Notes: generated by a model from the sequence alone, not told the origin. A stretch of 64,000 bases of DNA from Polyangia bacterium (GCA_030429545.1 JAUIFF010000001.1:339599-403598); one strand, 5' to 3'. Positions 13,814 through 60,914 are shown, counted from the stretch's first letter. A program made the numbers and translations.

Positions 13814-14518
13814 CTAGGACCTACGCAGTCGCGACCAGGCAAGCGCCGCGGCCCCGACAACCCCAGCGCGCGCAGCCCAGCGAATGCCCTTGAGAACGCG
13901 GATCCGGGTGCGCATCTGTTGGCGATCGTTGAGGTGGGGGAACGGCTCAGCCGGGGTGTCGACACCCAAAAACTCACACAGTGGCTCCCAACCCTGCTTG
14001 ACTGAGTAGACCAACAGGCGCTCGGGCGGGACATCGCGTTTGACCTGTTCGATGTGGTCGTTGAAGATTTTGATTGCATAATCACGGTTTAAAAACCGGC
14101 CGTGAAAGGTGCCGTCCCAGGCAGTCGCGGACCCAACCCGAGCCACCGCTTTGAGGCCGCGGGCAGGCAGCCACCGAGGTGTGTTGAGCGTCAGCGGATA
14201 AATTGTTTGGGCGACGCTCTCGTACCAGCGCTCGGGGTCGCGGACCGTCAGCAACACCTTGGCGTCGGGGTAGAGCTGCATGAGCTCGCGGTAGAAGATG
14301 CAACTGGGCCAGTCGAGACTGGACTGGTAACCAGCAAACAGTGAGTCCCAATCGACAGCCTCACCTCGGGCCGCCGCCAACCAGTGTGGGGCTTGCTGCG
14401 GGTGCTTGAGTACTTCGACCATGTGGTGGCACGTGCCAAAGCCGAGGCGTTCGAGAGCGGCCTTGAGCGAGGTCGTGCCGGTGCGGCCAAATCCGGCCCC
14501 AATGATTTTGAGTCCCAT
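13814..14518 (-). CDS. sulfotransferase-family protein (P-loop-like GxGRTGTT PAPS-binding motif)
   Basis: N-terminus MGLKIIGAGFGRTGTTSLKAAL plus downstream ...LLTVRDPERWYES... are characteristic of small bacterial sulfotransferases. Confidence 0.7.
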   Translation of the reverse strand: MGLKIIGAGFGRTGTTSLKAALERLGFGTCHHMVEVLKHPQQAPHWLAAARGEAVDWDSLFAGYQSSLDWPSCIFYRELMQLYPDAKVLLTVRDPERWYESVAQTIYPLTLNTPRWLPARGLKAVARVGSATAWDGTFHGRFLNRDYAIKIFNDHIEQVKRDVPPERLLVYSVKQGWEPLCEFLGVDTPAEPFPHLNDRQQMRTRIRVLKGIRWAARAGVVGAAALAWSRLRRS

Positions 14519-14599
14519 CGGCGGGAGTCTATCGCGGAGTCAGATGTGGCTTGCGTGGACAATTTCAGAAGATGCAGGGCTCGGGGTACACCGAGTGCG

Positions 14600-15568
14600 A
14601 TGGGGAGCAGTCTCGAAGCCGCGGCGGGTCAATTTCTCGAGTACCTCCGCAGTGAGGTGCGTGCCTCCGTACATACGATTCGTGCCTACGAGCGCGACAT
14701 TCGGGGGTTTGCCGAGGGCGTTCAGGCTCGGCGTGAGCGTGCGCCACGGGTGCAAGACCTCAACCTCCGGAGCGTGCGGGCCCACCTCGCGGACCTGTTT
14801 GGCAAAGTTGCTCCGAGCACGGTCGCGCGCAAGCTGTCATCGTTGCGCAGTTTTGCCGAGTTTTGCCGCAGCCGTGGGATGTTGCCCGAAAACGAAGTCG
14901 CCCTGATCCGCCGCCCCAAACTCGGGCGCAAACTGCCGGTGGCCCTACCGGTCGAGGACATCACCGAGATAATCGACGGCAAGGGGCACGCCAGCGGGGC
15001 GAGGGGGCTGCGAGATCGGGCGATCCTCGAGGTGCTCTATGGTGCAGGTTTACGCGTCAGCGAAGTTGCCAAACTCGACCTCGAGCACGTGCGCCATGAG
15101 GGAGCGGACGTCACCCTACGGATCGTCGCCGGCAAGGGCAATAAGGACAGGCTCGTGCCGCTCGGGCGGGTCGGAAGTGAGGCCCTCGCGGCCTACGTGG
15201 CGGTCCGAGACACGCTTGTCAAACCTCGCTCCAAGGGGACTGGCGCACTGTTCTTGAGCAATCGCGGGCAACGGCTCGGAGTCCGGACAATTCGCAACCT
15301 CGTGTATCGCAGGTGCGAACAAACCGGGGCACGGGCCCGCATTGGCCCCCACGGGATGCGCCACAGCTTTGCCACCCACCTGCTCCAAAGTGGGGCCGAC
15401 CTGCGCAGCATTCAGGAGATGCTTGGTCATGCAAGTTTATCGACGACCGAGCGTTACACCCATCTCGACCTCGGCCGCGTGACCGAGGTCTACGAGCGCA
15501 GTCACCCGCGGGCGGGGGCAAGCCGCGAAGCCTCGCGCTACAAGCTGCCGAAGTCTGGTGACAACTGA
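14600..15568 (+). CDS. tyrosine site-specific recombinase, XerC/XerD family
   Basis: ATG at 14600 verified. N-terminal core-binding domain (...FLEYLRSEVRASVHTIRAYERDIRGF...). Catalytic signature ...GLRVSE..., HGMRHSFATHLL, and LGHASLSTTERYTHL (the R-H-R-Y residues). XerC versus XerD cannot be told apart by eye. Confidence 0.8.
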   Translation: MGSSLEAAAGQFLEYLRSEVRASVHTIRAYERDIRGFAEGVQARRERAPRVQDLNLRSVRAHLADLFGKVAPSTVARKLSSLRSFAEFCRSRGMLPENEVALIRRPKLGRKLPVALPVEDITEIIDGKGHASGARGLRDRAILEVLYGAGLRVSEVAKLDLEHVRHEGADVTLRIVAGKGNKDRLVPLGRVGSEALAAYVAVRDTLVKPRSKGTGALFLSNRGQRLGVRTIRNLVYRRCEQTGARARIGPHGMRHSFATHLLQSGADLRSIQEMLGHASLSTTERYTHLDLGRVTEVYERSHPRAGASREASRYKLPKSGDN

Positions 15569-17479: not shown

Positions 17480-19087
17480 ATGGGCAATGGAAAACGGGAA
17501 AGTAAGTACGACTCTGGTAACGTTTGGACTACATGGCCGCGGCTGCTCGCGGTTGGGGTTGCAGCCTTGCTCCTGTCGCCCGTAGCAGCCTGCAGCAGTG
17601 GTGGAGATACAACCAGCGAAACACTTGGGACCGAGGGTCCGACAACCACGACGACGACCACAACCGCCGGGCCGGGAACAACCGACACCGACACCGACAC
17701 CGGGGCCGACACGGCTGCGACGGCGAGCGGGGGTGATTGCGGGAATGGCGAAGTCGACGAAGGCGAGGCCTGCGACGACGGTAACGATGACAACACCGAT
17801 TCGTGTCTCAACACCTGTGAGGAGGCAAGCTGCGGTGATGCGTTCGTGCAGGTCGGTGTCGAAGAGTGCGACGACGGCAACGACGACGACAGCGACTCCT
17901 GCACCAGCAACTGCCAGCTGCCAGTTTGCGGGGATATGATCGTCCAAGAGGGCGAGGAGTGCGACGACGGTAACGACGATGACACGGATGCTTGTACGAG
18001 CACGTGTGTGGCAGCAGCCTGCGGCGATGGTGTGGCCCAAGAGGGCGAAGAGTGTGACGACGGCAACACTGAAGACACCGACGAGTGCACCAACGCCTGC
18101 ACACTGCCAGTGTGCGGTGACGGTGTGGTGTCGAACGGTGAAGAGTGCGACGACGGCAATGCCGAAGATACCGACGCCTGCACCATGGAGTGCGTCGCCG
18201 CAGTCTGTGGCGACGGGATCGTGTGGGAAGGAACCGAGGCCTGCGACGACGGCAACGATGTCGATGACGATGAGTGTTCCAATATGTGCGCCCTCGCCAG
18301 CTGTGGTGACGGCATCGTCCAGATGGGCGAGGAGTGTGACGACGGCAACGATGTCGACTCCGATGAGTGTCCGACCAACTGCCTCAACGCCGTCTGCGGC
18401 GATACTTTTGTCCAAGAAGGGGTCGAGGATTGCGATGATGGCATGGAGTCGGAGATGTGCGACGGCGACTGCACGGCTGTGGAGTGTGGTGATGGCCTAG
18501 CCAACACGCTCGCGGGCGAGGAGTGCGACGACGGAAACGACGACGATACCGATGAGTGCGTTTCCGGTTGTGTCGCCGCGACCTGCGGTGACGGGTTCGT
18601 GCAGGACGGAGTCGAAGAGTGCGACGATGGCAACGAAAACAACGACGACGCGTGCACCAATGATTGTATGCTCAATCAAATCAACATCACCATGAGCTGC
18701 AACCAGGGGCAGGATTGCCAGCAAGAGTGCAACCCGTGGAACTCGTTCCGCTCCAGCCTCACAGGCGGTACCTACTCGGCAGTCACCCTCCGGGGCAGCT
18801 CGGACATGGTCGGTCAAACCTGCTCCAATCCAGCCCTTGCCAACCAGATTTGCAACAACCTCGCCACCGGCACGGCAACCAACGTCCAGTGCGACGGTCG
18901 AACCTGGCGAATCGGTAACTGCGGAGCAGGCGTGGAGATCAACGCCAACGGCAACATGTGTAGCTGCGCAGCCGGATGGGTGGTGCGCCCCTGCATCAAC
19001 CAAGGCAATCCCAACTGGGGCGGCATGAACACGGCGACCTGTAATAGTCCAACACAGACGCTCGAAGTCATCTGTTTTGGCGGCTAG
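17480..19087 (+). CDS. lipoprotein made of tandem Myxococcus-type cysteine-rich repeats ([27 protein letters not shown])
   Basis: Signal with lipobox-like VAACSS. Thr-rich spacer. About 11 consecutive roughly 40-aa repeats carrying ECDDGN(D/T)xDTD(A/E)C...C(V/L)xAxCGDG. Cys-rich non-repeat C-terminal domain. Antisense ORFs 17420..18415 and 17443..18675 are mirror artefacts. Confidence 0.7.
17750..18660 (+). repeat. coding tandem repeat array (about 120-nt period) encoding the cysteine-rich repeats
   Basis: Recurrent gagtgcgacgacggcaacga... / tgcggcgatgg... units are visible at nucleotide level. Confidence 0.6.
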
Positions 19088-19103
19088 CGAGTGTTATTTG
19101 CGC

Positions 19104-19136: not shown

Positions 19137-19168
19137 GATTACGGGCAAATGCTGGCCGACTCAAGGAC

Positions 19169-19876
19169 TCAAAACCCACCTCCGAAGAAAAGACCAAAGT
19201 AATTTGCATCGACTAAAATCGGGGAGGCACGGATTTTTTCTAGGTAGTTTCGAGAAAATTGAAAACCGGCTCGTACGAAATTTGTTTGCATCGAGAGTTC
19301 GCTACAAATACCGAGGGCCGCCTGCTTCTCGCGCCCTAGATACGCTAGTACTTCAGAGCGGACATACTGGAAGTGTGCGTAAAAATTGAAGCGGTTGAAC
19401 TTGAGTTTTTCTTCCCACTCTCGAAACACGCCTACTCGTACGGACGCATAGTTTAGGCGGGGCCTGTTCAGAGCTACACTTTCGCGCGCCGCAATCTCGA
19501 GGACGGTATCGTTAAACGCTTCACGAAAGGCCGCTGGCCGCCAGTAGACTTCTGCGTTCTGGCTGTGTAAATCAAGTGAAGCTGACCAGTGGTATCCGGA
19601 TGCTATGTCCACGGGGGTCTCTTCAGCGTCTTGAACCTTGATTTCTCGGATCGACTGAATAAAGCCTCGCAAGGCGGCCAGTGCATTGAGTGGACGTCCA
19701 TCGGCTAGTGACTGGAGCAACGAGCCGTATGTGTTTATAATAGGTGATTCGATAGTGTAGACTGGTCCCTTGTCATGTTTACTGGCAGTTGAGAACTTTT
19801 CGGTGAAAATTGCATAGCCCACTTTTGCCCGAATATAGTTCCTGTATCCTAGGTGGCCTCCGGCGACAAAAAGCAT
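19169..19876 (-). CDS. outer-membrane beta-barrel-like protein (C-terminal portion); lower-GC gene
   Basis: Alternating hydrophobic pattern. C-terminus ...VDANYFGLFFGGGF ends in Phe, the classic OMP signature. Local GC is about 50% against a background of about 68%. Confidence 0.4.
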   Translation of the reverse strand: MLFVAGGHLGYRNYIRAKVGYAIFTEKFSTASKHDKGPVYTIESPIINTYGSLLQSLADGRPLNALAALRGFIQSIREIKVQDAEETPVDIASGYHWSASLDLHSQNAEVYWRPAAFREAFNDTVLEIAARESVALNRPRLNYASVRVGVFREWEEKLKFNRFNFYAHFQYVRSEVLAYLGREKQAALGICSELSMQTNFVRAGFQFSRNYLEKIRASPILVDANYFGLFFGGGF

Positions 19877-20307
19877 ACGCGTAACCTCCTCCGGCCTTCG
19901 ATCGGGTTCAGGTGGCGACTTCGGTGGCGTATAGTCATCGGACTCGTAACTACCAATTCTGGCAAATGATAGAGTATAGAATGTGCCAACCTCAAACTCG
20001 GGGTGTTGTCCTCACGTTTTGTGATTGCCATCAAGTAGCGTTGGGAGATTACGTTGTTCGTAATCGTTTCATCGAAGTGTTGAAATGCCTGATCTGCTCG
20101 GGAGTTCTTGAGGACATCTGCTGGTGTGTCACCTAGGGGAGATTGAAGTGTAAGAAGTTGAAGCGGTACCAGTGCAAGCGTCCTCTTCGTGGTCCAGCGG
20201 CTCCGACTCATGGACATTTGCCGGATGTCCTCAGTCTGGGAGATACGGACGGGGTGAGAAGAGCACTCGGTACAGCAGCATAGTTTGGTATGGAACTTTG
20301 CGAGCAT
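19169..20307 (-). pseudogene. possible frameshifted OMP gene (ORFs 19849..20307 and 19169..19876 overlap 28 nt in different frames)
   Basis: The upstream ORF has a signal-like stretch (TKRTLALVPLQLLTLQSPLG) but no barrel. The downstream ORF has the barrel but no signal peptide. Both lie in the same low-GC islet, consistent with one gene split by a frameshift or a sequencing error. Confidence 0.3.
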
Positions 20308-20382
20308 GTGCGCTTTTATACCAACATTGGCGCGAAACTTTGCCTCTGGTGCACACGCCGAATTTCGGCTTACAGCTACCAG

Positions 20383-33625: not shown

Positions 33626-34020
33626 TGGCGTGAGACTAGCGCACTGCCGTCAACAAGTGTGTCGAAACCGTGCATAGCGTGTGTAGAGGTGGTAGCGGCA
33701 GGTTGTGGCGCCCTTCGGGCGCAACCGCCGATTTCACGCATCGAGAGGTCGAGCGCGGCCCTCGCAACCTGTGGATTTTTTTGTCACGACGCCTCGCATG
33801 CCGATTTGCTGTCGTAGCACCCACGACAGCTGCGATTCACAAAACCGATCGCTACCAGCAACACCGGCAACATCTGTACACGCGCCCAAAAAACCACGGG
33901 CTGCGAGCGCCTGTCGATTATGCCCATAAACTTGTCTATACACACCCACCGGCTGGGCGGCCTGCTTCGCTACAGTTACGTCGGCTTGACCGGGTCGCAA
34001 CAACCAGGGATGATGGGGGC

Positions 34021-35259
34021 ATGTGGGGGCGATCTAGGCGTGTTTGGCTCGCGGCGGTGGCCCTCGTTGCCCTCGTTGCCCTCCCGGGCCAAACACCGGC
34101 GGCCGAGACCCGGCAGATCTGTGTGACGTTTGGCCTCGGGTCGACCTACGCCGATGCATCGCCGCGGCGCAATGGGATCTGGATACCGGGCCAACCCAGC
34201 AAAGATGCGGGCGAGACCTACGGCCGGACCGACCAACCATTTCCGGCGATTGCTATGTTGGCGCGGGTACGCGACGCCTCCGGCGTCGTTTGGGGGTGGG
34301 CACCACTCGACGAACACGGGTGTACCGGCGAGTTTGAAACGCCCACAAATTCGGTTACGTTAGAGTACTATGATTGGGCTTACTTCGCCGACGATACTGG
34401 TGTGGTTGCCTACGATTGTTGGAGTGGCGATGGGTGTTCGTTTGAGCAGGCCGATGTGGAGGTCACGCTTGAAACAGGCGTAACCCATTACGAACTTGTT
34501 CACCTCAAACCGACGGCCCCAATGTTTTGGGCCACGGTATTCTCGACGTTTCGCCTGTCGCTTGTCCATGGTCTTCCGCTCTATGCCGTACTCACACGCG
34601 ATGAGACGGGCACGCGGCGAAATCTCGGGGGCTGGCCAACAGCCAACTATCGCGGGACAATCGGCGACTCACGCGGGACCGATCACAGCAAGTTTACGCT
34701 CGCCCACGAGTGGGGGCATATCCAAACCATACTGGCGACAACAGACGTACTCGCCAGTGACATCGATTATGGCTACACGCCGAGCATGTGCTCAGACGAC
34801 CCAGAAAGCGAAAACTACCAACCAGGGTGTACTCCGAGTACCCAGCATGCGATCGACAGTCTCGAGTATCAGTCGGCTGCGAGCGTTGAAGGATTCGCCA
34901 ATTGGTATGCAATGAGTGTGTGGAATGACGAGTCACAGAAGCAGGCGGTCTATATCCGGCCGCGCAGCGCCGATACTTTTCTGGCGATTTACTACGAAGG
35001 TGAATACCAACCCATTTGTGCCGAGGATCATTGCCCCCAGGGGGTCGCCAATGCGTTAGACTGGGCATTTGCGCTGTGGGACTTGCAAGCCCGTGCCCAA
35101 CTGCCTGGGGTTGGGCCCCATGCGGTTGGCGGCTTGCTAGCAGCGGCCTACCCCTGGCCGAAACCACAGGATTTTTGGCAACACTTTCTAGGCACGCTTC
35201 CCGAGCCCGTGGCCGGGGCGTGGTCGACGATTGGGGGAGACTTTGCCATCGATAACTAG
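34021..35259 (+). CDS. secreted HExxH-motif protein (putative zinc metallopeptidase)
   Basis: ATG at 34021 verified. Signal peptide MWGRSRRVWLAAVALVALVALPGQTPAAE. ...KFTLAHEWGHIQTI... contains HEWGH (HExxH), and a candidate third-ligand Glu lies downstream (EGFANWY). No family assignment possible by eye. Confidence 0.55.
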   Translation: MWGRSRRVWLAAVALVALVALPGQTPAAETRQICVTFGLGSTYADASPRRNGIWIPGQPSKDAGETYGRTDQPFPAIAMLARVRDASGVVWGWAPLDEHGCTGEFETPTNSVTLEYYDWAYFADDTGVVAYDCWSGDGCSFEQADVEVTLETGVTHYELVHLKPTAPMFWATVFSTFRLSLVHGLPLYAVLTRDETGTRRNLGGWPTANYRGTIGDSRGTDHSKFTLAHEWGHIQTILATTDVLASDIDYGYTPSMCSDDPESENYQPGCTPSTQHAIDSLEYQSAASVEGFANWYAMSVWNDESQKQAVYIRPRSADTFLAIYYEGEYQPICAEDHCPQGVANALDWAFALWDLQARAQLPGVGPHAVGGLLAAAYPWPKPQDFWQHFLGTLPEPVAGAWSTIGGDFAIDN

Positions 35260-40416: not shown

Positions 40417-41733
40417 TTACTCTAAAAACTCCCGCTCGACCTGGGCGTAGTCGACCTCGCAGTTTAGGCGGGCAAGCACCGAATAGAAGCCAAACTGCAA
40501 CCGGTTCATAAAAAACACACCCTCGGGAAACGGGACAAAGTTGTCGTCGCGATCGCGCAGGGTCGAACCGGCGATGTTGCGCACCTCGTGGACCAGGGCG
40601 GTGACATAGGGCCGAGTGATCCGATAGGGCGAGGCAAATTGTGGCATGAATGCGTTGCGCATATAGGAAAGGGCACGTTTTTCGTAGGCGCCGCCACGGG
40701 TTTCGAGCACGAGTTTGGCCGTTTCAAAAAATGTATGCTCGTCGCCGCGACAGGCCGCCAGATGCATGCGCACCGCGAGGTCCTGGCGGTGTTCGGTCAC
40801 CGGTTGAACACAGCCAAAGTCGATAAACGCAACCCCGCCATCGGCCTGAAAAAAGTAGTTCCCGGGGTGGGGATCGGCGTTGAACATCCCCCCCAAAATT
40901 GTCGCTTTGTAGACAAATCGCCACAGGGCTGCGGCCCATTGCGCGCGCAGTGCCTCGGGCTGGGTGCGGGCAGTATCGAAGTCAAAGCCCTCGACAAACT
41001 CAGTTGTCAGTACCCGGCGCCCACTGTGGCTGGGAATCACCGCGGGGATGCGGATAGCCGGATCATTGGCGTGAACGGTTGCAAATGCAAGTTGTCGCTC
41101 GGCCTCTAGGCGGTAGTCGAGCTCCTCGCGAAATCGTGTGCGAATCTCCTCGAGCATGCGCTTGGAGTCGAACTTGCGGGCACCGATCATGGCGATGGCC
41201 CCCTCGACCAGCCCCGCGTTTTTGAGGTCGTTTTCGACGGCCTGGGCAATTCCCGGGTGCTGGACCTTGACTGCAACTTCGCGGCCATCGTGCAGGCGCG
41301 CGCGGTGGACCTGGCCGATCGATGCACTTGCAATCGGTTTGGGATTCCACCACGCAAACAGCTCAGATACCGGTTTGCCGAGCTCCTCGACAAGCTGGGC
41401 TTCGATAGCTTCGGGCGGCGAGGTCGTGGTCGCGGCCAACAACTTTTTCATGTGGCGCTCATACCCGTCGCGGTGCTCCTCGGGAATCACACCATCGACA
41501 TAGCTGGCCATCTGTCCGAGTTTGGTCGCCAACCCGCGAAGGTTGCCAAGGGTGCGGGCCGCAGCAATCGCGGCGTCTTCGGAGTTGCGACCGAGCAACA
41601 GGTTGGCCCCGGAGCGCGCCCCGGTAGCTGCGAGTCGGGCGAGTCGACCGAGGCGACTACGCGGAAGTTTGCGGTCCGACATGGGGCGGAGTATCGGCGA
41701 TTCGACCCGGGTGCCAACTGTAAAAGAGCTCAC
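40417..41733 (-). CDS. ABC1/UbiB/ADCK-family atypical kinase
   Basis: [16 protein letters not shown]..., [26 protein letters not shown], and [12 protein letters not shown]...GGVAFIDFG are the hallmark ABC1 kinase motifs. Confidence 0.8.
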
Positions 41734-42074
41734 ATCGGGAAAAATCGAACGATGTACGGCGGGCCCGGGTTGCTGCCCTATCTCCTACAAATTTGCGATG
41801 CGTAGGGTTTTTGGATGGTTTTGGCTTGGTAACTCACAGTGGCTGGTAGTCGCGAGTTGCAGAAAGCTTCCGAAGTGGTCACTCACGTGACCCCGTCAGT
41901 GCTCGGTACGGCTCTTGACTCGCAACGCCGGTGGAAGCCAAGCCGGTGCTAGTGGGGCTCGGACAGACTTGCCGTCGCGCGCACACCTGTACATCGGTCG
42001 GGAGCAGGTCACGAGCGCCGGCGGAGGTCGAATCGGTGTACTTGCATGTGTTATCGCTAGTACGGGCGAAATCT

Positions 42075-42938
42075 ATGACCGACTTCTTTGCCTTCCATCA
42101 GGTCCTACTCCAATTAGCCAGCCTTGTAGCATCTTTCCTGCTCAGGGATGATATTTGCTATCCTTGGGGAGTGAAGATACGACCAGAGCTTCTCCTTGTG
42201 TGCTGTCTGGGAGGTTGTCCGTCCAAGGGCTCGGTCACGACGTCGTTGACAATCTCAGACACAGGCAGTTCTTCGACGAGCTCTTCGACAAGCACCAGCT
42301 CGTCTGGGGGGAGCGACACTGCTTCGGAACCGTCGTTGACAATGGGGAGTGGCACCGCCTCGACCTCCACCACACTCGGTGAGACCACGGCGGGAGACGG
42401 TGTATGTCCAGAGTGTTCTGATTGCTCGGATCAAGAGACCTGCGTAGCTCGATGCAAAACGGGTCAAAACCCGGCAGACCGTGAGTGCTATGTTGAGTGT
42501 ATTGAGAAAGTCCCATTTTCGAGTAAACTTGAAGCTTGTGAGTACGAAGATTCCTTATGTGGCCCAGACATGACAATAAATGGGTTTGGTGAAGATTACT
42601 TTGCATGCGGGGATGTTTTATGTAGCGATGCATGCGACATCTGCTCGGTTTGTGACTGGTATGAGTGTGAGCTTACGAACCCTTGCAAAGAGGGCTACAA
42701 CTGTAGTCCAATCCGTGTATTTAGCGAGCACGCTTATGACTGGCTGGCTTGTTTACCAAGTGGCGATCTACCGGTGGACTCGCCATGTGTGGAACATAGC
42801 GACTTTGACGAGTGTGAGTACGGTGCAGCTTGTGTTGTCGGTGTCTGCCGTTTCTTCTGTGACGAAGATGATTCATGCCCTCAAGGCTATCATTGTGAAA
42901 CTTTACAAAACTGGGTTAACTTTTGTGTTCTCGACTAG
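42075..42938 (+). CDS. cysteine-rich secreted lipoprotein, paralog A (lower-GC islet)
   Basis: ATG at 42075. An in-frame GTG at 42171 gives a better lipoprotein signal (V)KIRPELLLVCCLGGC. Ser/Thr-rich linker, then a roughly 190-aa domain with about 28 Cys. This domain is collinear with the gene at 43119..43883 (for example ...LEACEYEDSLCGPDMTINGF...CGDVLCSDACDICSVCDWYEC...CPQGYHCETLQNWVNFC). Local GC is about 50%. Confidence 0.55.
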   Translation: MTDFFAFHQVLLQLASLVASFLLRDDICYPWGVKIRPELLLVCCLGGCPSKGSVTTSLTISDTGSSSTSSSTSTSSSGGSDTASEPSLTMGSGTASTSTTLGETTAGDGVCPECSDCSDQETCVARCKTGQNPADRECYVECIEKVPFSSKLEACEYEDSLCGPDMTINGFGEDYFACGDVLCSDACDICSVCDWYECELTNPCKEGYNCSPIRVFSEHAYDWLACLPSGDLPVDSPCVEHSDFDECEYGAACVVGVCRFFCDEDDSCPQGYHCETLQNWVNFCVLD

Positions 42939-42959
42939 AATGCGCCTGGCTTTTGTGGC

Positions 42960-43045
42960 ACCTCGGCGACGACCCATCAGTTGAGGAGCGCAGCTGTCTG
43001 CTCACCGTGACTCCGGAGGTACATTGCGAGTCCCGCGGAGCATCG
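42960..43045. repeat. dispersed repeat copy R1 (core tcaccgtgaNtNcgNagNtNcattgcgaNt)
   Basis: ...acccatcagttgaggagc...gtctgctcaccgtgactccggaggtacattgcgagtcccgcgga..., with two related copies 1.1 kb away (R2, R3). Confidence 0.45.
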
Positions 43046-43118
43046 AGTGGAGCTGCCATAAATCTCTCGCGGTCGGTACAACTTCGACGAAGCAGGTGGT
43101 GTTGATAGCCTTTGCATG

Positions 43119-43883
43119 TTAGCTCGGATAGCAGTACCCAACCCAATTCTGTATGTACATACAGTGAAATCCCTGAGGGCACGAGTCTTGCTTACCACAC
43201 GGAGTGCGGCAAGTTTCAAACACGCAAGCAGCTCCATATACACACTCATCATAGTCGTTGTGATGAGTGCAGGGCGAGCCTACGGGGGAGTCGCCGCTTG
43301 GAAGACAAACCCGCCAGTCATAAAAGATGTCATTACCAAAAACAAGAATTGGGCTACAATTGTAGCCCAGTTCGCATGGAGAATTGACGGAGCACTCATG
43401 CCAGTCGCAGGATGAGCATATATCACACGATTTGCTACATAACACATCGCCACAAGCACGACTAGTGCTATCCTTCCGGAATCCCACTATCCCCATGTCG
43501 GGGCCACAAAGGTATTCATCAAAGTTGCAAGCCTCAAGCTCCGTCGAAAATGGAGCATCTCCCTTAGGGAGACAAACGGTGCCGCACACACCTTCATAGA
43601 TGTTGATTGTACACCTTGCAATACATATTTCGTCATCAGAGCAAGTAGAACACTGTGGGCAATCGAGGTCCCCACCCGTAGCTGTCTCAGTGTCAATGTC
43701 TGTCGTCGATTCTGACTCTGAGCTATTCCCTAGCGAGGTTTCATCCGTTGTCGATGAACCAGTAGTTGTCGAAACTGATGTTGTCCCGCCATCTGTATTG
43801 GAACTTGAGTTTTCGACCGAGCTGCAACCGACCAAGTAGAAGATCGCAATAAATAGTGCGGGAGATACCTTCACATTGCTCAT
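43119..43883 (-). CDS. cysteine-rich secreted lipoprotein, paralog B (convergent with paralog A)
   Basis: ATG at 43883 verified (MSNVKVSPALFIAIFYLVGCSS, lipobox LVGC). Ser/Thr/Glu linker. Cys-rich domain collinear with paralog A (...LEACNFDEYLCGPDMGIVGF...CGDVLCSKSCDICSSCDWHEC...CPQGFHCMYIQNWVGYC). Confidence 0.6.
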   Translation of the reverse strand: MSNVKVSPALFIAIFYLVGCSSVENSSSNTDGGTTSVSTTTGSSTTDETSLGNSSESESTTDIDTETATGGDLDCPQCSTCSDDEICIARCTINIYEGVCGTVCLPKGDAPFSTELEACNFDEYLCGPDMGIVGFRKDSTSRACGDVLCSKSCDICSSCDWHECSVNSPCELGYNCSPILVFGNDIFYDWRVCLPSGDSPVGSPCTHHNDYDECVYGAACVFETCRTPCGKQDSCPQGFHCMYIQNWVGYCYPS

Positions 43884-44077
43884 GATAGCATCATTCAGGG
43901 GGGCTTCACTCGCGAGCAATTTCGACTGTTTTGTGAGCAAGCTTGAAGCACACGAGCCCGTGTTCGTTTGTAGCCACCGCGCAATACCATCGCCACGGTG
44001 TATGCTGAGTCTATGAACTGCACGGCCGCTGACCCTAGCCAGCGGCCGGCTTGCTCACCGCGACACATCAGCCGACA

Positions 44078-44150
44078 AGGTCGGCCGTCTGCTCCTCACC
44101 GTGAATCCGCAGATACATTGCGAGTGCCTCGCGGATTATCATAGCTATGT
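44078..44150. repeat. dispersed repeat copy R2
   Basis: ...gtctgctcctcaccgtgaatccgcagatacattgcgagtgcctcgcggattatca... is about 85% identical to R1 over roughly 55 bp. Confidence 0.45.
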
Positions 44151-44197
44151 CAAGGGTTGGCGATCTACGCCGCGCCTACCCACCGGTCCGTTTGCTC

Positions 44198-44290
44198 GTC
44201 TCGAACCCATCAGTCGAGGAGCTCCTGAGTTTCACCGTGACTGCGCAGGTGCATTGCGAAATCCTCGTCGATCATCGCCATCCGCTTCTC
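44198..44290. repeat. dispersed repeat copy R3
   Basis: ...acccatcagtcgaggagctcctgagtttcaccgtgactgcgcaggtgcattgcgaaatcctcgtcgatcatcg... shares both the acccatcagtYgaggagc head and the tcaccgtga...cattgcga core with R1. Confidence 0.45.
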
Positions 44291-44436
44291 TCCGTCCCGC
44301 CGCCAGGCCTCGTCGGTCGACGATTGTGGATCGTACTTGTTTGATGACAGAGGTGCGAAGGGAGAAAAGAAGCAAAAATAAGGTTCCGGACGTTGTCACG
44401 GATCAAAGTTCCCACTCCGAGTGCTATACAAGCGAC

Positions 44437-45552
44437 ATGCGCTCACTTGCCGCCGTGATGCTCCTTGTGTCGTGCGCACCGGATTCCTCGATCGGGACCA
44501 CGACGACAACGACGTTCACGCCCACTACCAGTGGTGACGTGCCGGAGCCCACGTTGGTGACATCCACTGGAAGCGTTGACACCGTTGACACAACCGGGAC
44601 AGGCACAACATCGACAACCGGCTCGACGTCGGGACAGCACCCGACGACAACCGGAGTCTTGCCTGACTTCGGCCCCGACGGCCCTGACTGCGGCGGCAAG
44701 ATCGATATCCTGTTTGCGTTCGATACCGCCGGACAACTAGAGGAGCACTACCCGAAACTCGAGTTCGCGCTGCAGGAGACGTTGCCAACCTTCATCGAGT
44801 GGTTCGCCAACTTTGACACGCACTGGCTCGTCGCCAACACCCGGGGTGGGTGGGGGATCGCGGGCTGTGAGGACGAGTGCGCCGCGAATGATGGCGTCAT
44901 GTGCTGGCCCGTGGGGCCGCCGGCCTATCCATGTAAGGCCTACGACGGGGAGCTTTCGGAGTGCGACACAACTTTTGCCGCAGGCGTCACCTATCCCGCC
45001 GGTTTCGACGCGGCCAATAAGCGTTGCATCCTCGGGTCAGGGCAACGGTATGCGACCTCGGAAGATGCCGAGGACCTGTTGGCCGAGCTCGAGTGCATCA
45101 CGCAGACCGGATGGACGGATGTTGGTGGCCTAATTGCTGAGAAAGCAATGGTCGACGCCGTGCGACCGACAATGGCGAAAGTTCCTGGCGGCTGTAACCT
45201 CGGTTTTTTGCGGGACGAGGCATTGCTCGTTGTGATCTACTTTTCGGCTTACGGCGGGGTTTACGCCCCGAGCGGGCCTCCAGAGGAGTGGGCCGAGGTG
45301 TTTCTAGATGCCAAGGGAGGCGACCCCGACAAAATCGTTGTGCTCGGGATCTCGCCTGACACCACGGAGCCAGACCCCGTATGCGAGAAGAATAACCTCA
45401 AGGACGATTACTGGGCGTACAACGAACAATTCTTGCATTTCATCATGAAGCACGCGATCCACGGTAGCCGCTGTGCCGAGGATTACAGACCGTTTTTAAT
45501 GGATGTCCTCACCCTGTCGCTTGCGCTGTGTGGGGAGGACCCGCCGACATAA
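44437..45552 (+). CDS. hypothetical lipoprotein with Thr-rich linker (possible degenerate vWA-like start ...IDILFAFDTAGQ...)
   Basis: ATG at 44437 verified (MRSLAAVMLLVSCAPD, lipobox). Thr/Gly-rich linker, then a roughly 290-aa globular domain with several Cys pairs. The vWA resemblance is weak. Confidence 0.55.
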   Translation: MRSLAAVMLLVSCAPDSSIGTTTTTTFTPTTSGDVPEPTLVTSTGSVDTVDTTGTGTTSTTGSTSGQHPTTTGVLPDFGPDGPDCGGKIDILFAFDTAGQLEEHYPKLEFALQETLPTFIEWFANFDTHWLVANTRGGWGIAGCEDECAANDGVMCWPVGPPAYPCKAYDGELSECDTTFAAGVTYPAGFDAANKRCILGSGQRYATSEDAEDLLAELECITQTGWTDVGGLIAEKAMVDAVRPTMAKVPGGCNLGFLRDEALLVVIYFSAYGGVYAPSGPPEEWAEVFLDAKGGDPDKIVVLGISPDTTEPDPVCEKNNLKDDYWAYNEQFLHFIMKHAIHGSRCAEDYRPFLMDVLTLSLALCGEDPPT

Positions 45553-45565
45553 AAACGGGCCGGAA

Positions 45566-47086
45566 CTATGGGTGAATGGCGACTACAAACGCACGCGTGT
45601 GGCCACCAACTTCGACACGCCCGGTCGCGTAGAAGTTGCCAAATCGGTCCGACGCCAACGCGGTCAAACTTCCGACTTCGGGCGACTGGAATAACCAGCT
45701 GTCTCGGAACACCGCCGGTCGTCCCCCGAGGCTCCCAACCGCGTGCCCGTGTCCGGCCGCAACCACCTCGCCCTCGAATTCGACAGACGTGTAGTAGCTG
45801 AGGTCTGGCTTATGGGTGGAGCGGAAGCTTGTTTCGTCCGTCCCCCCCCACGCGATAAACTTGTCCCCAGCGAAACCTCCACCGACATACTCGCTGTCAC
45901 CACCTGTGTTGGGGCGGGGAACGGTAGATAGTGCTCCCGACGAGAACGAAAACAGGCGGGGGTGCTTGATAAACTCTAGCATGCCGATTTCCTCGCGCAC
46001 GTACCCTGCACACACAACACTTTGCCCGCGCACGGACACACTGCGGATCGAAGAGTCGAGAAAAATCCCGTCAGAGTTCTCCACACTCAACGTGTCGGAA
46101 AAAACCGTCCCACCCGACTCGGTGAGCTGCCACGCCGTGGCGTCGAAACCATCGCCTCCGATCGCTTCCCCCACCACAATGACGTCCTCGCCAAACGCCG
46201 CGGCTCCGTGGAGCATCGTGTCCGGAAAGTTGCGCACCCAGTACCGTACCCAACTCCCATGGAGTTCGCGGTACAGCCGGACCTCCGCGTCTTCGCCGAC
46301 AGAACCGACGAGCACGAGGCTCCCGTCGGACAGCATCGTCGCCGATGTGACATCGAGCGGCTCGTCCTCGGCGAACGCTCGCTCGAACACTGAGCCCAAC
46401 GGTGACACCTCCGAGAGCGTGACGAAATCGCCGGCGTTGCCCACCAGGAACATGCGATCGTAGAAGCCAGGCTGCCCAGGCTCGACCACGACAGCCTTGC
46501 CTGTGGTCCCGGGCGCGCCCACCCAGGTGTAGTTCAACGACCCAGAAGCCGGTAGGTCGACGACCACTGTTGTGGCCGCCATCAGCGGGGCGCCTGAGCC
46601 TGTCTGTGCAAGTACACGAAACTCCTTGGTCCCATTGTCGTCCGGTTGATCGACGATGTACTCGAGTGAATCCTGCCCCAAGGGCCATGTGATCTTTTCG
46701 ACAGGTCCGTTGCTATCGAGATTTGAGACAAACAGGTCGAGCGACTCCAGCGAGTCAATCGAGTCTGTTTCGACGGTTAGGAGCACGCTCCCTGCCTGTG
46801 TGAGTGAATCGACGTTGACGCTCAGGTAAAGCTCGCCCTGGTCGTGCACTCCAGTTTCCGATGCCTGGTCCGTCGGGTCGGTGGTTTCTGGCGACCCGGT
46901 GGTCCCGGGCGGGAAGTCGTGGGAGTCCTCGAAGTCCGTGGTCGACCACCCCGTCGTGTCGTCACCGGTGTAGCCATTGTTGTGTTGGTGAATCTGATTG
47001 AGTATCGAATCGTGATCGCCGCACGACGCACTGAGAAGAACGGCCAAGCAGGTGAGGCGAGCGGGCACGGATCTATTATCGCACAT
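45566..47086 (-). CDS. hypothetical lipoprotein (large beta-rich extracellular protein)
   Basis: MCDNRSVPARLTCLAVLLSASCGD has a lipobox. Acidic Thr/Asp linker. Long beta-strand-like repeats. The antisense ORF 46071..46688 was rejected. Confidence 0.55.
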   Translation of the reverse strand: MCDNRSVPARLTCLAVLLSASCGDHDSILNQIHQHNNGYTGDDTTGWSTTDFEDSHDFPPGTTGSPETTDPTDQASETGVHDQGELYLSVNVDSLTQAGSVLLTVETDSIDSLESLDLFVSNLDSNGPVEKITWPLGQDSLEYIVDQPDDNGTKEFRVLAQTGSGAPLMAATTVVVDLPASGSLNYTWVGAPGTTGKAVVVEPGQPGFYDRMFLVGNAGDFVTLSEVSPLGSVFERAFAEDEPLDVTSATMLSDGSLVLVGSVGEDAEVRLYRELHGSWVRYWVRNFPDTMLHGAAAFGEDVIVVGEAIGGDGFDATAWQLTESGGTVFSDTLSVENSDGIFLDSSIRSVSVRGQSVVCAGYVREEIGMLEFIKHPRLFSFSSGALSTVPRPNTGGDSEYVGGGFAGDKFIAWGGTDETSFRSTHKPDLSYYTSVEFEGEVVAAGHGHAVGSLGGRPAVFRDSWLFQSPEVGSLTALASDRFGNFYATGRVEVGGHTRAFVVAIHP

Positions 47087-57896: not shown

Positions 57897-60800
57897 GTGA
57901 GCTATCGGAAGTTTCAGTGGTCGACTCCTCTCGTCGCAGCTCTCGCTGCCAGCCTCGTAAGCCCTGTTGCTGGGGCCGCTGCCCCCCAGTCGAGCTCTGG
58001 GCCCGGCACCATGCGGCTCGAAGCAAAGTCTGGTGCGAGTGTACGCACGGCGGCTGAACTTGCTTGGCACACGGGTCCAACGACTCGGTCGAAGTTGATG
58101 AACACGGCCTGGGGCCGCCTGCTCGCCGATGTGGCGGATGTCAAAGTTGCCTGGGATACGGCAACAGGGGTTGCCAGTCGCATGGTGTTGGCCGGTGTTG
58201 AAGCGGCCAATAGTGTTGATGATGCAACGATCGCCGAGCAGCATGCGCGGGCATTTCTCGCCAAACACCTCGAGCTGCTAGCCCCGGGCGCCCAGGTGTC
58301 GGACTTCAAGCTCGCGGCCAACAAGCGTCAGGGCAAAACCCGGGCGGTTGGGTTTATCCAAACGTATCAGGGGGCTCCGGTACTCGGTGGGCAAATCGGG
58401 TTTCGCTACCAAAACGATCGTCTCATTCTCGTGAGTTCGGAGGCTGTGCCCCACATCGCAGTGCCGAGGGCCGGATTTGTCATCAGTGACCGTGTGGCCG
58501 AGGAGCGAGCCCTCGATTGGGTTTTGGCCGACGTGAGCCCGCAGGCAGACCTGCGAGGTGCGGTTGCGGCACCTGAGATATTGCCGTTGATCGGAGAGAC
58601 TGGTGTGCTCGAGACCCGCGAGGTCCGGCGGGTCACGATTGACACGACGGCGCCGGTCGGTCGCTACGAAGTATTTGTAGATGCAAAAACAGGGGAGCCG
58701 GTTGCCCGGCGTCAGACCCTGATGTTTGGCCAGGCATCGGTTGTTTACGACACGCCGATTCGTGGTCCCCATGCCGCGCGCGGGACCTACCCGGCGGCCT
58801 TCGCCAACCAAGCGGTCAACGGCGTGCCCACACTCAGCGATGCCGCGGGGGTGGTCAGTTGGGACGGCAGTGGCGTGGTTGATGTACGTGCAAATGTTGA
58901 AGGACCATACATTCGTATTGTCAACGAGGCGGGCTCGGAGGCCTTCAACAATGTCCAGGTTGCCGACGGTGGGCAGGTGCAGTGGGTCGACCCGGGCAAC
59001 GAGCTTGTCGATGCCCAACTGACGACGTTTATCCATACCAACCTCGTCAACAGCTATGTCCGCAACATCGATCCATCGTTTGCCTGGCTCGACGAACAGA
59101 TCAACGGTGTGGTCAATATCGAGGATGTTTGCAATGCCTACTCCGACGGCCACAACATCCACTTTTTCCAGTCGAGCGGACAATGTGCCAACACCGGCCA
59201 GCTGACGGACGTCGTGTACCACGAGTTTGGCCACTCGGCGCACTCCAATGTAATCATCCCGGGTGTTGGTGCATTCGACGGGGCCCTGAGCGAGGGGATT
59301 TCTGATTACCTTGCAGCTACAATCGTTGACGATTCGGGCATGGGCCGGGGATTTTTCAAAACCGATGAACCGCTGCGCGAGCTCGACCCCGATGGCTATG
59401 AATGGCACTGGCCCGAGGATCGCGGCGAGGTCCACTACGAGGGCCAGATCATTGGCGGAACGCTTTGGGACCTACGCCAGCTGCTACGCCAAAAGCTCGG
59501 TGACGCGGCCGGCATTGCCCTGGCAGATCGGATTTTCCTGGAGGGCATTAGCCGTGCCGTCAACATTCCGTCGATGTACCTCGAAGCCCTGGTGATCGAC
59601 GACAACGATGGCAACCTGCTCAATGGCACACCCAATGTCTGTGAGATCAACAAGGCCTTTGGCGACCATGGCCTGCGGACCATGTCGGCTGAGGTCACAG
59701 ACATCGGCCGTGTCGACACCGTGCAAAATGGCTATGAGATCAAGGCATCTGTCGATGGTCTGATTTTCCCCGAGTGCGGCGACATGCTGGGCGATGCCAC
59801 CCTCGAGTGGAAGGTGCGTGGGCAGGCTGGACCGACGAACTCGGTGCCAATGTCGGCGAACGGGCTGGTATTCGCGGCCACAATCCCCCAGCAGGCCCCA
59901 AACACGGTGATTCAGTATCGGGTGCAGGTTGGCTTGGTTGGCGGCAATCCCCAGTCGTACCCGCAAAACCTAGGTGACCCATGGTTTGAGTTTTATGTCG
60001 GTGATGTCGTGCCGCTTTACTGTACAAGTTTTGAGGACAACGACGGCTGGCAGCTGCCTGGCAGTTGGGAAATCGGTCAACCCCAGGGGGCAGGGGGCGA
60101 CCCCGAGGATGCTCGCGGGGGGGACAATGTTCTCGGCACGGTGTTGGGTGGCACAGGCATGTACCCGGCGTTTTCCTCGGATGCGACGTCGTCGCCCATG
60201 GTCGACACCCTCGGGTACGATGTCGTGCGGTTGCAGTACCGCCGCTGGCTTCGGGTCGAGGATTCGTTTTATGACGTCGGCAACATTCTCGCCAACGGTG
60301 GCGAGGTATGGCGCAACACTGAGACGCAGGACGGGACCACCCACCACCTAGACCACCAATGGCGGTTTCACGATGTCGACCTCAGCAGTCGTGTGCAAAA
60401 TGGAAAGGTGCAGCTGCAATTTTCCTTTGAGAGCGACGCCGGGCTCGAGTTTGGTGGTTGGAACATCGACGACCTGTGTATCGTTGGGGTTGGCGATGTC
60501 GAGGGGCCGGGCTCCTGTGGCGATGGGATCATCGACCCCGACGAAATCTGCGACGACGGCCCCGGCAACAGTGCCTCGGTGCCGGATGCCTGCCGGCCAG
60601 ATTGCACGCCGGCCGCCTGTGGAGACGGTGTGGTCGACAGCGGCGAAAGTTGTGACGACGGCAACCTGTGGGGCGGTGATGGCTGTAGCGCGACCTGCAA
60701 CAACGAGTCGGGTGAGAGCGACACGACGACGGCTGGTCCGGAAACCGAGTCGGACTCAGATGGCACGGAAACCGGCGAGACGGATACCGACACCGGCGAC

Positions 60801-60914
60801 TTGGCGGTCGATGGACGGGGCTGTGGCTGCCGCTCGAGCGACGACACGGCGCCAATCGGGACTGCTGCCGTTGCCCTGTTGATGCTCGGGCTTCGTCGAC
60901 GCCGGCGCGACTAG
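57897..60914 (+). CDS. secreted zinc metallopeptidase (HExxH; M4/M36/M6-like) with C-terminal Myxococcus cysteine-rich repeats and MYXO-CTERM-like sorting tail
   Basis: GTG start at 57897, signal peptide (V)[29 protein letters not shown]. Catalytic ...[15 protein letters not shown]... plus ...[13 protein letters not shown]... (Glu-Asp third-ligand region). C-terminal [18 protein letters not shown] / [16 protein letters not shown] repeats. Tail ...[34 protein letters not shown] (GCGC, then hydrophobic, then an Arg cluster). Confidence 0.75.

Follow-up and report, generated by a model that had tools for sequence, protein, structure and literature searches.

Two Cysteine-Rich, Putatively Lipid-Anchored Paralogues at a Strain-Variable, AT-Rich Locus of a Probable Marine Myxobacterium

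A stretch of 64 kb from a genome that is probably that of a myxobacterium of the Nannocystaceae, and a probable marine one, carries two convergent genes for cysteine-rich proteins in a patch of low GC, together with a repeat present in three copies. This raises the question of whether the locus was imported from a foreign donor or represents a variable part of a resident gene family. We analyzed the whole 64-kb stretch, here called the window, and favor with a probability of roughly 0.55 the reading of a strain-variable accessory locus, in which two anciently diverged paralogues of a clade-restricted, lipid-anchored family would provide binding modules and the repeat would be a scar.

Paralogous Genes in an AT-Rich Patch

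Between 42400 and 44000 the GC content is 0.477–0.515, compared with 0.60–0.63 on both sides (calculated over 400 nt at a time), with the minimum of 0.465 at 42524; the 64 kb as a whole have a mean of 0.601 and a standard deviation of 0.036. Comparably low GC is found in only one other stretch of the window, at ~18.8–20.6 kb. The drop reflects synonymous sites: GC3 is 0.43 in the domain encoded by geneA and 0.49 in that of geneB, against 0.56–0.81 in the other long open reading frames (ORFs) of the window, which were picked with a filter of GC3 ≥0.55. Codon choice differs between the same sets (Ala GCT 0.57 vs. 0.09; Pro CCA 0.46 vs. 0.15), and the signal and Ser/Thr linker ahead of the geneA domain have a GC3 of 0.68. 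Sliding GC (0.47–0.52 against the mean of 0.60) and codon use therefore agree on the lower-GC islet of a preliminary description, the coordinates of which proved correct to ~10–20 nt.

On the left, the patch is flanked by a gene for an ABC1 atypical kinase (40417..41733, minus strand; Pfam ABC1, E 3e-56) with a host-like GC3 of 0.70. The ORF of geneA spans 42075..42938 on the plus strand and its stored protein, P0002, has 287 aa from the ATG at 42075; the GTG at 42171 is the likelier start, giving MKIRPELLLVCCLGGC with a lipobox. Its Cys-rich domain (42393..42935, plus strand) comprises 181 aa. On the minus strand, geneB (43119..43883) encodes P0001, 254 aa long, with the signal MSNVKVSPALFIAIFYLVGC, a Ser/Thr linker, and a Cys-rich domain of 184 aa (43122–43676, minus strand). 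To the right lie geneC (44437..45552, plus strand), for a lipoprotein of 371 aa with a Thr-rich linker and a host-like GC3 of 0.72, for which a profile search returned no Pfam or NCBIfam family, and convergent with it geneD (45566..47086, minus strand), for a lipoprotein-like protein of 506 aa. This arrangement is seen in two independent assemblies.

The proteins of geneA (read from 42171..42938) and geneB are 55% identical along 203 aa (E 6e-72), which bears out their description as convergent paralogues. Both show a signal with a lipobox Cys, a Ser/Thr-rich stalk of ~50 aa, and a compact domain of ~185 aa, so that the lipoprotein signal and linker described before are visible in the translations; the conserved Cys-rich domains were likewise recognized correctly, but we count 26 Cys per domain and not the ~28 given earlier. 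The Cys positions are invariant in an alignment of seven family members and could form up to 13 disulfides per domain, and the C-termini stop right after the last Cys motif (..NWVGYCYPS or ..NWVNFCVLD). The lipoboxes read from the translations are L-G-G-C in geneA and L-V-G-C in geneB: The sequence of the geneB region, MSNVKVSPALFIAIFYLVG|C, fits the pattern [LVI][ASTVI][GAS]C, whereas that of geneA from the GTG at 42171, MKIRPELLLVCCLGG|C, departs from a strict lipobox in the Gly at −2. Relatives agree, with FVSGC (P0004), ATMGC (P0006), and LAVGC (P0007) at this site. Judged from these signals, both products are predicted to be lipid-anchored extracytoplasmic proteins.

At the DNA level, similarity between the two genes is confined to the domain-coding part (42372–42917 vs. 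43693–43140, 62.5%), with differences at 0.58 of third codon positions and 0.28 of first and second positions. Third positions near saturation and similarity limited to the domain indicate that the duplication is ancient and that flanks and repeats were not coduplicated, which contradicts the earlier proposal of a duplicating cassette.

Distribution of the Family and Origin of the Locus

The family is, by the searches performed here, very small and clade-restricted. A search of 1.84 billion representative proteins gave only nine matches at E ≤1e-3; six of these are full length with the same layout of signal, linker, and domain, and three share the C-terminal module of ~80 aa alone, in otherwise uncharacterised proteins. 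When 5.8 billion proteins were searched through a word index, just the two paralogues came back. The Cys-rich domain has no match in Pfam, NCBIfam, PADLOC, or PHROGs, and a fold search with a confident AlphaFold model (pLDDT 82) gave none in PDB or BFVD; these results, together with the true paralogy and the rarity, uphold the preliminary view of a secreted, disulfide-rich family without known function. Known Cys-rich families were considered and rejected, as no profile of the myxococcal Cys-rich repeat, DUF4215, EGF, Dickkopf, or knottin type scored above threshold and none gave a significant fold match in PDB or BFVD.

All relatives found occur in a Nannocystaceae-like context, mostly adjoining homologues of geneC. 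Such homologues are linked to family members at L011, where the neighbor is 38% identical to geneC (E 5e-72), and at L013; a further locus, L015, also has two family genes in convergent orientation. The family genes tend to lie next to the geneC/geneD pair, but they differ in where and in which orientation they are placed and in how many copies occur. The geneD product itself is only weakly similar to the neighbor at L013.

Low GC3 recurs throughout these relatives: It is 0.44 for P0006 (neighbors 0.73–0.78), 0.50 for P0003 (neighbors 0.66–0.80), 0.49 for P0005 (neighbor 0.74), and 0.48 for P0004, and overall 0.43–0.57 for the family in at least four genomes against 0.66–0.80 for the neighbors. 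As relatives in other genomes combine the same low GC3 with host-like neighbors, the composition is long-standing; in every genome where the family was found, its codon use is AT-rich, a standing property that does not signal recent import from a foreign donor.

The locus nevertheless differs between close strains. A sister strain, represented by two independent assemblies (L016 and L017), is 98.1% and 99.0% identical to the window over 10.8 kb up to 42942, with the alignments running across the ABC1 kinase gene (kept at 98–99%) and with a geneA that is 99.4% identical (five mismatches, three amino acid changes). Homology ends at 42942/42943, 4 nt past the stop codon of geneA; beyond this breakpoint, the sister strain has a spacer and, in the slot of geneB, a different family gene with 92% nucleotide identity to the gene at L015. 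Both sister-strain contigs end inside this alternative gene, and the mapped breakpoint is the left one. In a related species (L018–L020), the geneC/geneD pair is kept at 63% identity, with no family gene upstream of its geneC. Polymorphism by presence/absence or replacement, the former a check proposed in the preliminary description, is thus found among close relatives, and a geneB slot that holds a different member in a near-identical strain makes this a variable accessory locus.

Atypical composition and strain variability are the parts of the earlier "horizontally acquired" label that stand; the foreign donor is not supported, as all relatives detected reside in the same kind of genome with the same low GC3. 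In its full form, the earlier model invoked an islet recently acquired from a foreign donor of lower GC, a mobile cassette duplicating in place with the repeat as its recombination site. The islet GC3 far under that of the host genes would fit, as would the direct repeats 1.09 kb apart that flank geneB, the exchanged geneB slot with its sharp break at the left end of the first repeat copy, and the related species without a family gene upstream of geneC. However, no low-GC reservoir and no member outside the clade was found among the 1.84 billion representatives, at least three other genomes have relatives that share both the low GC3 and, mostly, the geneC neighbor, the near saturation of third positions and the nonaligning flanks of the paralogues argue against duplication in place, and the repeat is missing from all other family loci searched (see below). 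There is also no integrase, transposase, or tRNA within ~10 kb: The 64-kb window contains no tRNA, no integrase or transposase was found among the large ORFs scanned at 31.5–54.9 kb (several of which are without any Pfam match), and the nearest tyrosine recombinase (14384..15568) is 28 kb away. We therefore consider this model unlikely, although ongoing transfer of family genes within the clade could also explain why GC3 stays low, which would be nearer to the earlier idea.

A related known kind of locus comprises AT-rich accessory islets and hypervariable surface-protein loci that strains exchange by recombination in conserved flanks. Lower GC3, a sharp left homology break, and alternative genes in ~99% identical strains are shared with these; here, however, mobility genes and tRNA are absent from the borders, the genes carried belong to an orphan family restricted to the clade, and the low GC3 persists across divergent genomes instead of decaying. 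Set against the criteria for a recent foreign island, the locus shows atypical composition and strain polymorphism but neither a donor outside the clade nor mobility genes at its borders.

The Three-Copy Repeat

The repeat core, TCACCGTGANTNCGNAGNTNCATTGCGA, occurs at 43002, 44096, and 44232, always on the plus strand, and 0 of 100 shuffled sequences gave a match. Extended copies (42970–43046, 44061–44140, and 44203–44276) are 65–78% identical and weaker similarity reaches ~30–40 nt further left, so that the whole repeat measures ~75–110 nt. R1 (42943..43046, core 43002–43029) lies between the convergent stop codons of geneA and geneB, with its left end falling on the sister-strain breakpoint. 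R2 (44033..44140, core 44096–44123) and R3 (44172..44276, core 44232–44259), both on the plus strand like R1, are arranged in tandem in the divergent geneB/geneC intergenic region with a start-to-start distance of 136–142 nt, R2 being ~180 nt upstream of the geneB start and R3 ~160 nt upstream of geneC. The repeat therefore brackets geneB, with R1 downstream and R2 and R3 upstream.

All three copies described previously were recovered, and the 64-kb window holds no fourth even with six substitutions allowed, so that within these 64 kb it does not behave as a REP element. Searches of 185,579 species genomes, IMG/VR, and JGI metagenomes gave only chance matches at the pattern level, and none of the other family loci searched contains the repeat. 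It is consequently not a feature of the family, and the suggestion that the family carries its own repeat-borne element is not supported. The repeat has no coding, RNA-structure, integron, or (within the 64 kb) REP signature.

Most likely, the repeat is a scar of an insertion or duplication. Insertion of the geneB segment would have doubled a piece of intergenic sequence, for example if a circular piece integrated by a single crossover, an event that leaves direct repeats, and R3 may be a later tandem copy. It should be noted that the repeats are less diverged than the synonymous sites of geneA and geneB; this could point to a later event or to functional constraint, the latter not being predicted by a scar.

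Alternatively, the repeats could be regulatory DNA. They might serve a dimeric regulator as operators, which is proposed because TCACCGTGA, at the beginning of the core, is a palindrome, or they might be modules of the promoters or 5'-UTRs of geneB and geneC that selection keeps. R2 and R3 do lie inside the divergent promoter region, a sigma-70-like −10/−35 match toward geneB overlaps R2 at its right end, and the identity of 65–78% is better kept than the synonymous sites of the paralogues. R1, however, sits between two convergent stop codons with no obvious operator target, promoter-like matches are not enriched (4 found vs. 1.8 ± 1.3 expected), a good −10 hexamer is read in R2 only, neither conserved structure nor covariation was detected, and geneC homologues elsewhere lack the element in their upstream region. 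A regulatory role thus appears improbable.

A coding origin seems more doubtful still. The minus strand of all three repeats reads ..AM(Y/H)LR(S/I)HGE.. followed by TGA 6–9 codons on, and the copies might thus be 3'-end remnants of a small gene, left by successive insertions, as at integration sites, or by the decay of three paralogues. In favor of this are the in-frame stop common to three of three copies and the location of three of the five variable positions of the 28-nt core at third codon positions; over the whole alignable coding-like stretch, however, the variable columns show no preference for any codon position (6/19, 8/20, and 8/20), and copy 1 requires a frameshift. The peptides have no Pfam match even at E ≤10, a search with little power for fragments of only 23–28 aa; their sole PDB match is a designed repeat protein, the matches in sequence collections are unrelated "AMDLRGHG" coding motifs, and neither the window nor the related loci contain a full-length ORF with such an end. 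The peptide presumably resembles the last helix of ribbon-helix-helix regulators, but a remnant of this type (CopG/antitoxin) is not supported, as the 23–28-aa fragments gave no profile match and no coding-type substitution pattern.

Finally, a single-gene unit of ~1.09 kb between direct repeats of ~100 nt, next to an "empty" unit of 136 nt between R3 and R2, recalls an integron-like cassette array with the repeats as attC sites. This reading is contradicted because the tested features are missing: No integron integrase is adjacent, the equivalents of the core sites (GTTGAGG, GCCGACA, and GTCGAGG) lack conserved GTTRRRY or RYYYAAC ends, and hairpin stability does not exceed that of shuffled controls (z −1.2 to +0.7). 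With geneA in the opposite orientation and three sites only, we regard an integron as extremely improbable.

Candidate Roles and Known Systems

Under the preferred reading of a strain-variable accessory locus, the proteins would be displayed on the cell envelope via the flexible stalk, the domains, stabilised by disulfides, may serve as binding modules in adhesion or recognition, and the variation between strains would reflect diversifying pressure, as in other polymorphic surface proteins. The products of geneA and geneB would most likely be polymorphic, surface-anchored binding proteins.

A plausible model, by analogy, for the role of a strain-variable surface binding protein is TraA of Myxococcus, a polymorphic cell-surface receptor that functions in kin recognition and outer-membrane exchange (PMC3820747, PMC6372800). 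Like TraA, the geneA and geneB proteins are myxobacterial and extracytoplasmic, contain a Cys-rich region, and belong to a locus that is polymorphic between close strains; they are lipobox lipoproteins with C-termini that end after the last Cys motif, and they vary by whole-gene replacement in a two-gene locus, whereas the variation of TraA is allelic and lies within a single domain. The TraA protein combines a PA14-like variable domain with tandem Cys-rich repeats and carries a MYXO-CTERM tag for sorting. None of these features was found in geneA or geneB, which show no sequence or profile similarity to TraA and no Pfam or NCBIfam domain in profile searches, and a TraA-type receptor was accordingly rejected.

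As a long shot, the convergent pair might represent a new polymorphic system of self/non-self recognition or contact-dependent interaction in marine myxobacteria, with an unseen 26-Cys fold and single-gene alleles exchanged by recombination at the flanking ~100-nt repeats from an AT-rich gene pool shared by the clade. If true, this would be a form of cassette exchange unrelated to integrons, and lasting AT-rich codon use would mark genes that circulate as a pool of the clade and not of one genome.

Small disulfide-rich folds (Dickkopf/colipase CRD, inhibitor cystine knots, and EGF-like) were the top-ranked structural and profile matches of the domain, none of them significant; these are likewise compact, disulfide-held binding modules. 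The myxobacterial Cys-rich repeat proteins with a repeat motif of 11 protein letters (DUF4215/TIGR02232 type) occur in similar hosts and are also secreted, lipoprotein-anchored, and disulfide-rich, but the geneA/geneB domain fails those models and forms a single unit of ~185 aa in place of a short tandem repeat. The window itself encodes examples of this DUF4215/TIGR02232 type, one at 17480..19087 and one at 57897..60914.

An orphan family of disulfide-rich lipoproteins

The two convergent genes, geneA (starting at 42075 or, more likely, at a GTG at 42171, and ending at 42938; + strand) and geneB (43119..43883, − strand), specify products whose alignment over 203 aa shows 55% identity (E 6e-72, with geneA taken from 42171). 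In both, a lipobox (CLGG or YLVG before the C) precedes a linker of ~50 aa rich in Ser/Thr, which leads into a domain containing 26 Cys (181 aa in one protein, 184 aa in the other), bearing out the preliminary description of two paralogous Cys-rich lipoproteins. At the DNA level, the similarity is limited to the domain-coding part (42372-42917 vs. 43693-43140, 62.5%), and no linkers, promoters, or flanks could be aligned between the two genes. Third positions differ in 58% of the aligned codons and first and second positions in 28%, a pattern which shows that the copies are old and both under purifying selection. The proposal of a cassette duplicating in place therefore does not hold as far as a recent local duplication is concerned, given the extent of third-position difference and the unalignable flanks.

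Neither protein has a match in Pfam, NCBIfam, PADLOC (defence systems), or PHROGs (phage proteins), and a word-indexed search of 5.8 billion proteins recovered the two paralogues alone. When 1.84 billion cluster representatives were searched exhaustively with an HMMER profile, nine proteins reached E <= 1e-3. Besides geneB itself (P0001), whose 50% cluster presumably also includes geneA, these comprise five further full-length members with the signal-linker-domain layout (P0003-P0007) and three larger proteins that have only a C-terminal module of ~80 aa in common with the family, present in four tandem copies in one of them. The Cys positions are invariant across an alignment of the seven family members. 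A scan of the JGI metagenomes for further members gave 114 pattern matches, none of which was confirmed. The domain is thus an orphan disulfide-rich domain, the C-terminal half of which is a slightly more widespread and equally uncharacterised module.

Structure prediction of the domain with AlphaFold reached a pLDDT of only 41 from the two paralogues alone, and gave a confident model from the nine sequences (pLDDT 82.3, pTM 0.66), consisting mostly of beta-hairpins with one helix. Searching this model against the PDB with Foldseek yielded nothing significant, the best match being a Dickkopf Cys-rich domain (E 0.18, TM 0.13), and spider knottins align to it over 25-30 residues only; no match was found in a viral structure set, and the best hit of a profile search of PDB sequences was a fibrillin module at E 0.059. 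The domain is accordingly a candidate for a new disulfide-rich fold, as judged from the predicted model, and the family is indeed of an undescribed kind, with neither a Pfam or NCBIfam family nor a structural counterpart in these sets. The combination of 26 conserved Cys, a confident model lacking a match in the PDB or the viral set, and about half a dozen full-length relatives is one of three features that raise the locus above the routine, beside its stable AT-rich codon use and the whole-gene replacement between strains, both described below.

Composition and origin of the low-GC stretch

The lower-GC islet with atypical codon use was confirmed by sliding GC, GC3, and codon preferences. At a 400-nt sliding scale, GC is 0.477-0.515 between approximately 42400 and 44000, compared with 0.60-0.63 in the flanks; the mean of the window is 0.601 (sd 0.036), its absolute minimum of 0.465 lies at 42524, and at the 1-kb scale the whole window has only one other stretch of similarly low GC, at about 18.8-20.6 kb. 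GC3 is 0.43 in the geneA domain and 0.49 in the geneB domain, against 0.56-0.81 in the other long ORFs of the window, a comparison set restricted to ORFs with a GC3 of 0.55 or more. Among the flanking genes, it is 0.70 in the ABC1 kinase gene (40417..41733, −), and 0.72 in both geneC (44437..45552, +) and geneD (45566..47086, −), which encode neighbouring lipoproteins. Because the shift is carried by third positions and by synonymous codon choice (Ala GCT 0.57 in the low-GC genes vs. 0.09 in the comparison ORFs, Pro CCA 0.46 vs. 0.15, Thr ACC 0.19 vs. 0.52), amino-acid composition can be ruled out as its cause.

Two further observations concern composition. Within geneA, the signal and linker (42171-42392) have a host-like GC3 of 0.68 and the Cys-rich domain (42393-42935) one of 0.43, so that geneA may be a mosaic or may have recombined where linker and domain meet; geneB is low throughout, at 0.47 and 0.49 for the corresponding parts. 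The other low-GC stretch (18800-20600; 1-kb GC minimum 0.492) holds two minus-strand ORFs without a Pfam match, 19169..19876 and 19849..20307, and may be another accessory islet.

The relatives of geneA and geneB allow the origin of this composition to be weighed. On a contig of NCBI assembly GCA_964621785.1 (L013), P0003 (GC3 0.50) lies directly upstream of a geneC homologue (GC3 0.66) in the same direction, followed by a weakly geneD-like gene, with an ABC1 kinase gene 9 kb away and other neighbours at GC3 0.72-0.80. On two contigs, L011 and L012, P0006 (GC3 0.44) faces a geneC homologue with a GC3 of 0.73 (38% identity, E 5e-72) in convergent orientation. On L015, P0005 (GC3 0.49) forms a convergent pair with another family gene, and the upstream neighbour has a GC3 of 0.74; P0004 on L014 has a GC3 of 0.48. 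Low GC3 is thus kept by the family in at least four genomes, the geneC and ABC1 proteins of which are 38-50% identical to those of the window. Among the 83 homologues of geneC are several, at 46-48% identity, from MAGs labelled Nannocystaceae, and one labelled Myxococcales; with the cysteine-repeat and DUF4215 proteins also encoded in the window, they make a Nannocystaceae-type myxobacterium the probable host. The family was seen in no other clade among the 1.84 billion cluster representatives.

Since the low GC3 is conserved in divergent genomes and the family is confined to the clade, the suggested horizontal acquisition is contradicted in the sense of a recent import from a foreign low-GC donor. 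The data fit a family of accessory genes native to the clade that has retained its own AT-rich composition; weak selection on accessory genes of fast turnover, or continual exchange within the clade, would be alternative sources of that composition. The persistence of AT-rich codons across divergent genomes, beside host-like neighbours, provides a counter-example to the equation of low GC with recent acquisition.

Some features of these neighbourhoods should be mentioned. On L011 (2429-3519), a DUF6642 gene comes after P0006 and its geneC-like neighbour, together with an IS3-type transposase orfA, the sole mobility gene seen near any family member. On L015, a Cys-rich protein with weak Endostatin/DUF1554-like matches (341-1075) is encoded upstream of the convergent family pair, with a 680-nt gene-free spacer after it. 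GeneC and geneD (44437-47086; 989-3614 on L018, a contig of a related species) form a conserved convergent lipoprotein pair without a Pfam or NCBIfam family, and two geneC-like fragments, P0094 (153 aa) and P0099 (88 aa), occur on one 308-kb NCBI contig together with a full copy, which suggests that they are pseudogenes or partial duplicates.

Strain variability and the repeat around geneB

A geneA variant with three amino-acid differences (P0100), taken from a ≥90%-identical cluster, led to L016 and L017, contigs of a sister strain that come from two further sequencing runs (samples SRR15635847 and SRR15635845). Their identity to the window is 98.1% and 99.0%, over a stretch starting at 32136 or 39768 and ending at 42942, 4 nt beyond the geneA stop codon; geneA itself shows 5 mismatches in 864 nt, and there is zero alignment from 42943 onward. 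Past this breakpoint, both contigs continue with an unrelated spacer of ~100 nt, followed by a different type of family gene in convergent orientation, the C-terminus of which reads ..CPQGHSCAYIQMAFPVCLPD and the last 68 residues of which have ~63-68% protein identity to geneA, geneB, and P0003. This alternative gene shares 92% nucleotide identity with the second family gene on L015, where its partner is the distant P0005 instead of geneA. The arrangement of the window is itself backed by two further independent assemblies, both 100% identical. As the homology stops just past geneA and the sister strain carries another family gene, near-identical strains differ in the family member that occupies the geneB slot. 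In the related species, geneC and geneD are 82% and 63% identical to those of the window, and the homology begins at 44436, the base before the geneC start codon; upstream of it lies an unrelated 160-aa gene and no family member. Replacement in the sister strain and absence in the related species uphold the variable-cassette part of the first reading, which, together with the observations themselves, outlasts the claims of foreign acquisition and recent duplication.

A second strain-variable gene appears to lie nearby: 33670..35259 (+), without a Pfam hit, contains two 500-nt bins (33636-35135) with 62 and 45 mismatches to L016, and nearly all other bins have 0-6.

The three-copy dispersed repeat also proved to be real, as its 28-nt core is present exactly three times, always on the + strand, and 0 of 100 shuffles gave a match. 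The extended copies, R1 (42970-43046), R2 (44061-44140), and R3 (44203-44276), are 65-78% identical, with weaker similarity extending about 30-40 nt leftwards. All are in direct orientation and confined to the surroundings of geneB, R1 lying 72 nt downstream of its stop codon and R2 and R3 preceding its start by about 180 and 320 nt, and no further core with up to six substitutions was found in the 64-kb window or any related locus. The left end of the extended similarity of R1 (about 42940-42943) coincides with the strain breakpoint. The repeats have diverged less than the synonymous sites of the paralogues, so they either arose after the gene duplication or are constrained to some degree.

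On the most economical reading, the geneB segment would have been inserted into, or have recombined at, an intergenic sequence that was duplicated on both sides; single-crossover integration of a circular piece is a route that would leave such a flanking duplication, and R3 would be a later tandem copy. A tyrosine recombinase of the XerC/XerD type with an N-terminal SAM-like domain is encoded at 14384-15568 (+), 28 kb from the islet, and no link between the two was found.

Other identities of the repeat were considered. A coding remnant of an RHH-like gene 3′ end was raised by a minus-strand reading of ..AMYLRSHGE..stop in all three copies and by apparent third-base variation in the core; the variable columns however do not favour any codon position (6, 8, and 8), a frameshift affects copy 1, the peptides lack a Pfam match and hit only a designed protein in the PDB, and no profile or full-length gene matches, leaving this reading unsupported. 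A structured RNA or attC-like hairpin was rejected, with neither strand folding better than shuffled controls (z near zero) and no Rfam family or tRNA in the window, as was an integron, with no IntI and no conserved core sites. R2 and R3, both within a divergent promoter region and both starting with the palindrome TCACCGTGA, may have a regulatory role, but such a role would leave R1 unexplained.

Nor did the public collections give any sign that the repeat is a widespread element. The core gave eight matches in 185,579 species (one genome each, the source genome not among them), 15 in the JGI metagenomes, and none in the IMG/VR viral contigs; all are matches to the pattern only, mostly 'AMDLRGHG'-type coding motifs, and because their flanks are unrelated to the repeat, the core pattern alone is not specific. 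At least five of the matching loci (L003-L010 and L022-L036) are the same Nitrospira-like sequence, and one match translates, in reverse complement, to 'AMDLRGHGD', which we take to resemble an alpha/beta-hydrolase motif. The R2 core also matches the L011 DUF6642 gene at 20/23 nt, which was judged to be due to chance (E 0.66).

A putative role at the cell surface

The locus is an AT-rich, strain-variable accessory locus for predicted surface proteins, a known kind, here with an orphan family of unmatched fold as its cargo and an unusually stable compositional signature. Its proteins combine lipobox signals, Ser/Thr stalks, 26 conserved Cys, and purifying selection on both copies with recurrent linkage to the geneC–geneD lipoprotein pair and strain-level replacement. 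From these sequence features, they would be exported and lipid-anchored, with a flexible, possibly glycosylated stalk holding the domain off the membrane, and the rigid disulfide-locked module may bind a partner on another cell, prey, or matrix. An inhibitor or toxin would be equally compatible with this architecture, and is ranked below a binding module solely on the ground that the two slots are filled by paralogues and not by a toxin with its immunity protein. For the binding module, the strain variation would reflect diversifying pressure, and whole-gene replacement between near-identical strains points to such pressure on a surface protein. An analogy, in logic and not in sequence, is provided by TraA of Myxococcus, a polymorphic receptor (PMC3820747, PMC6372800).

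In social bacteria, strain-variable surface loci govern recognition, adhesion, or the interactions with phages and predators; the present one adds an uncharacterised accessory locus to a poorly studied group, and long-standing open questions are not directly touched by it. Two large secreted or lipoprotein-like proteins are encoded elsewhere in the window, one with about 11 tandem cysteine repeats (17480-19087, +) and one with a DUF4215 match (57897-60914, +); such cysteine-repeat and DUF4215 proteins are typical of myxobacteria.
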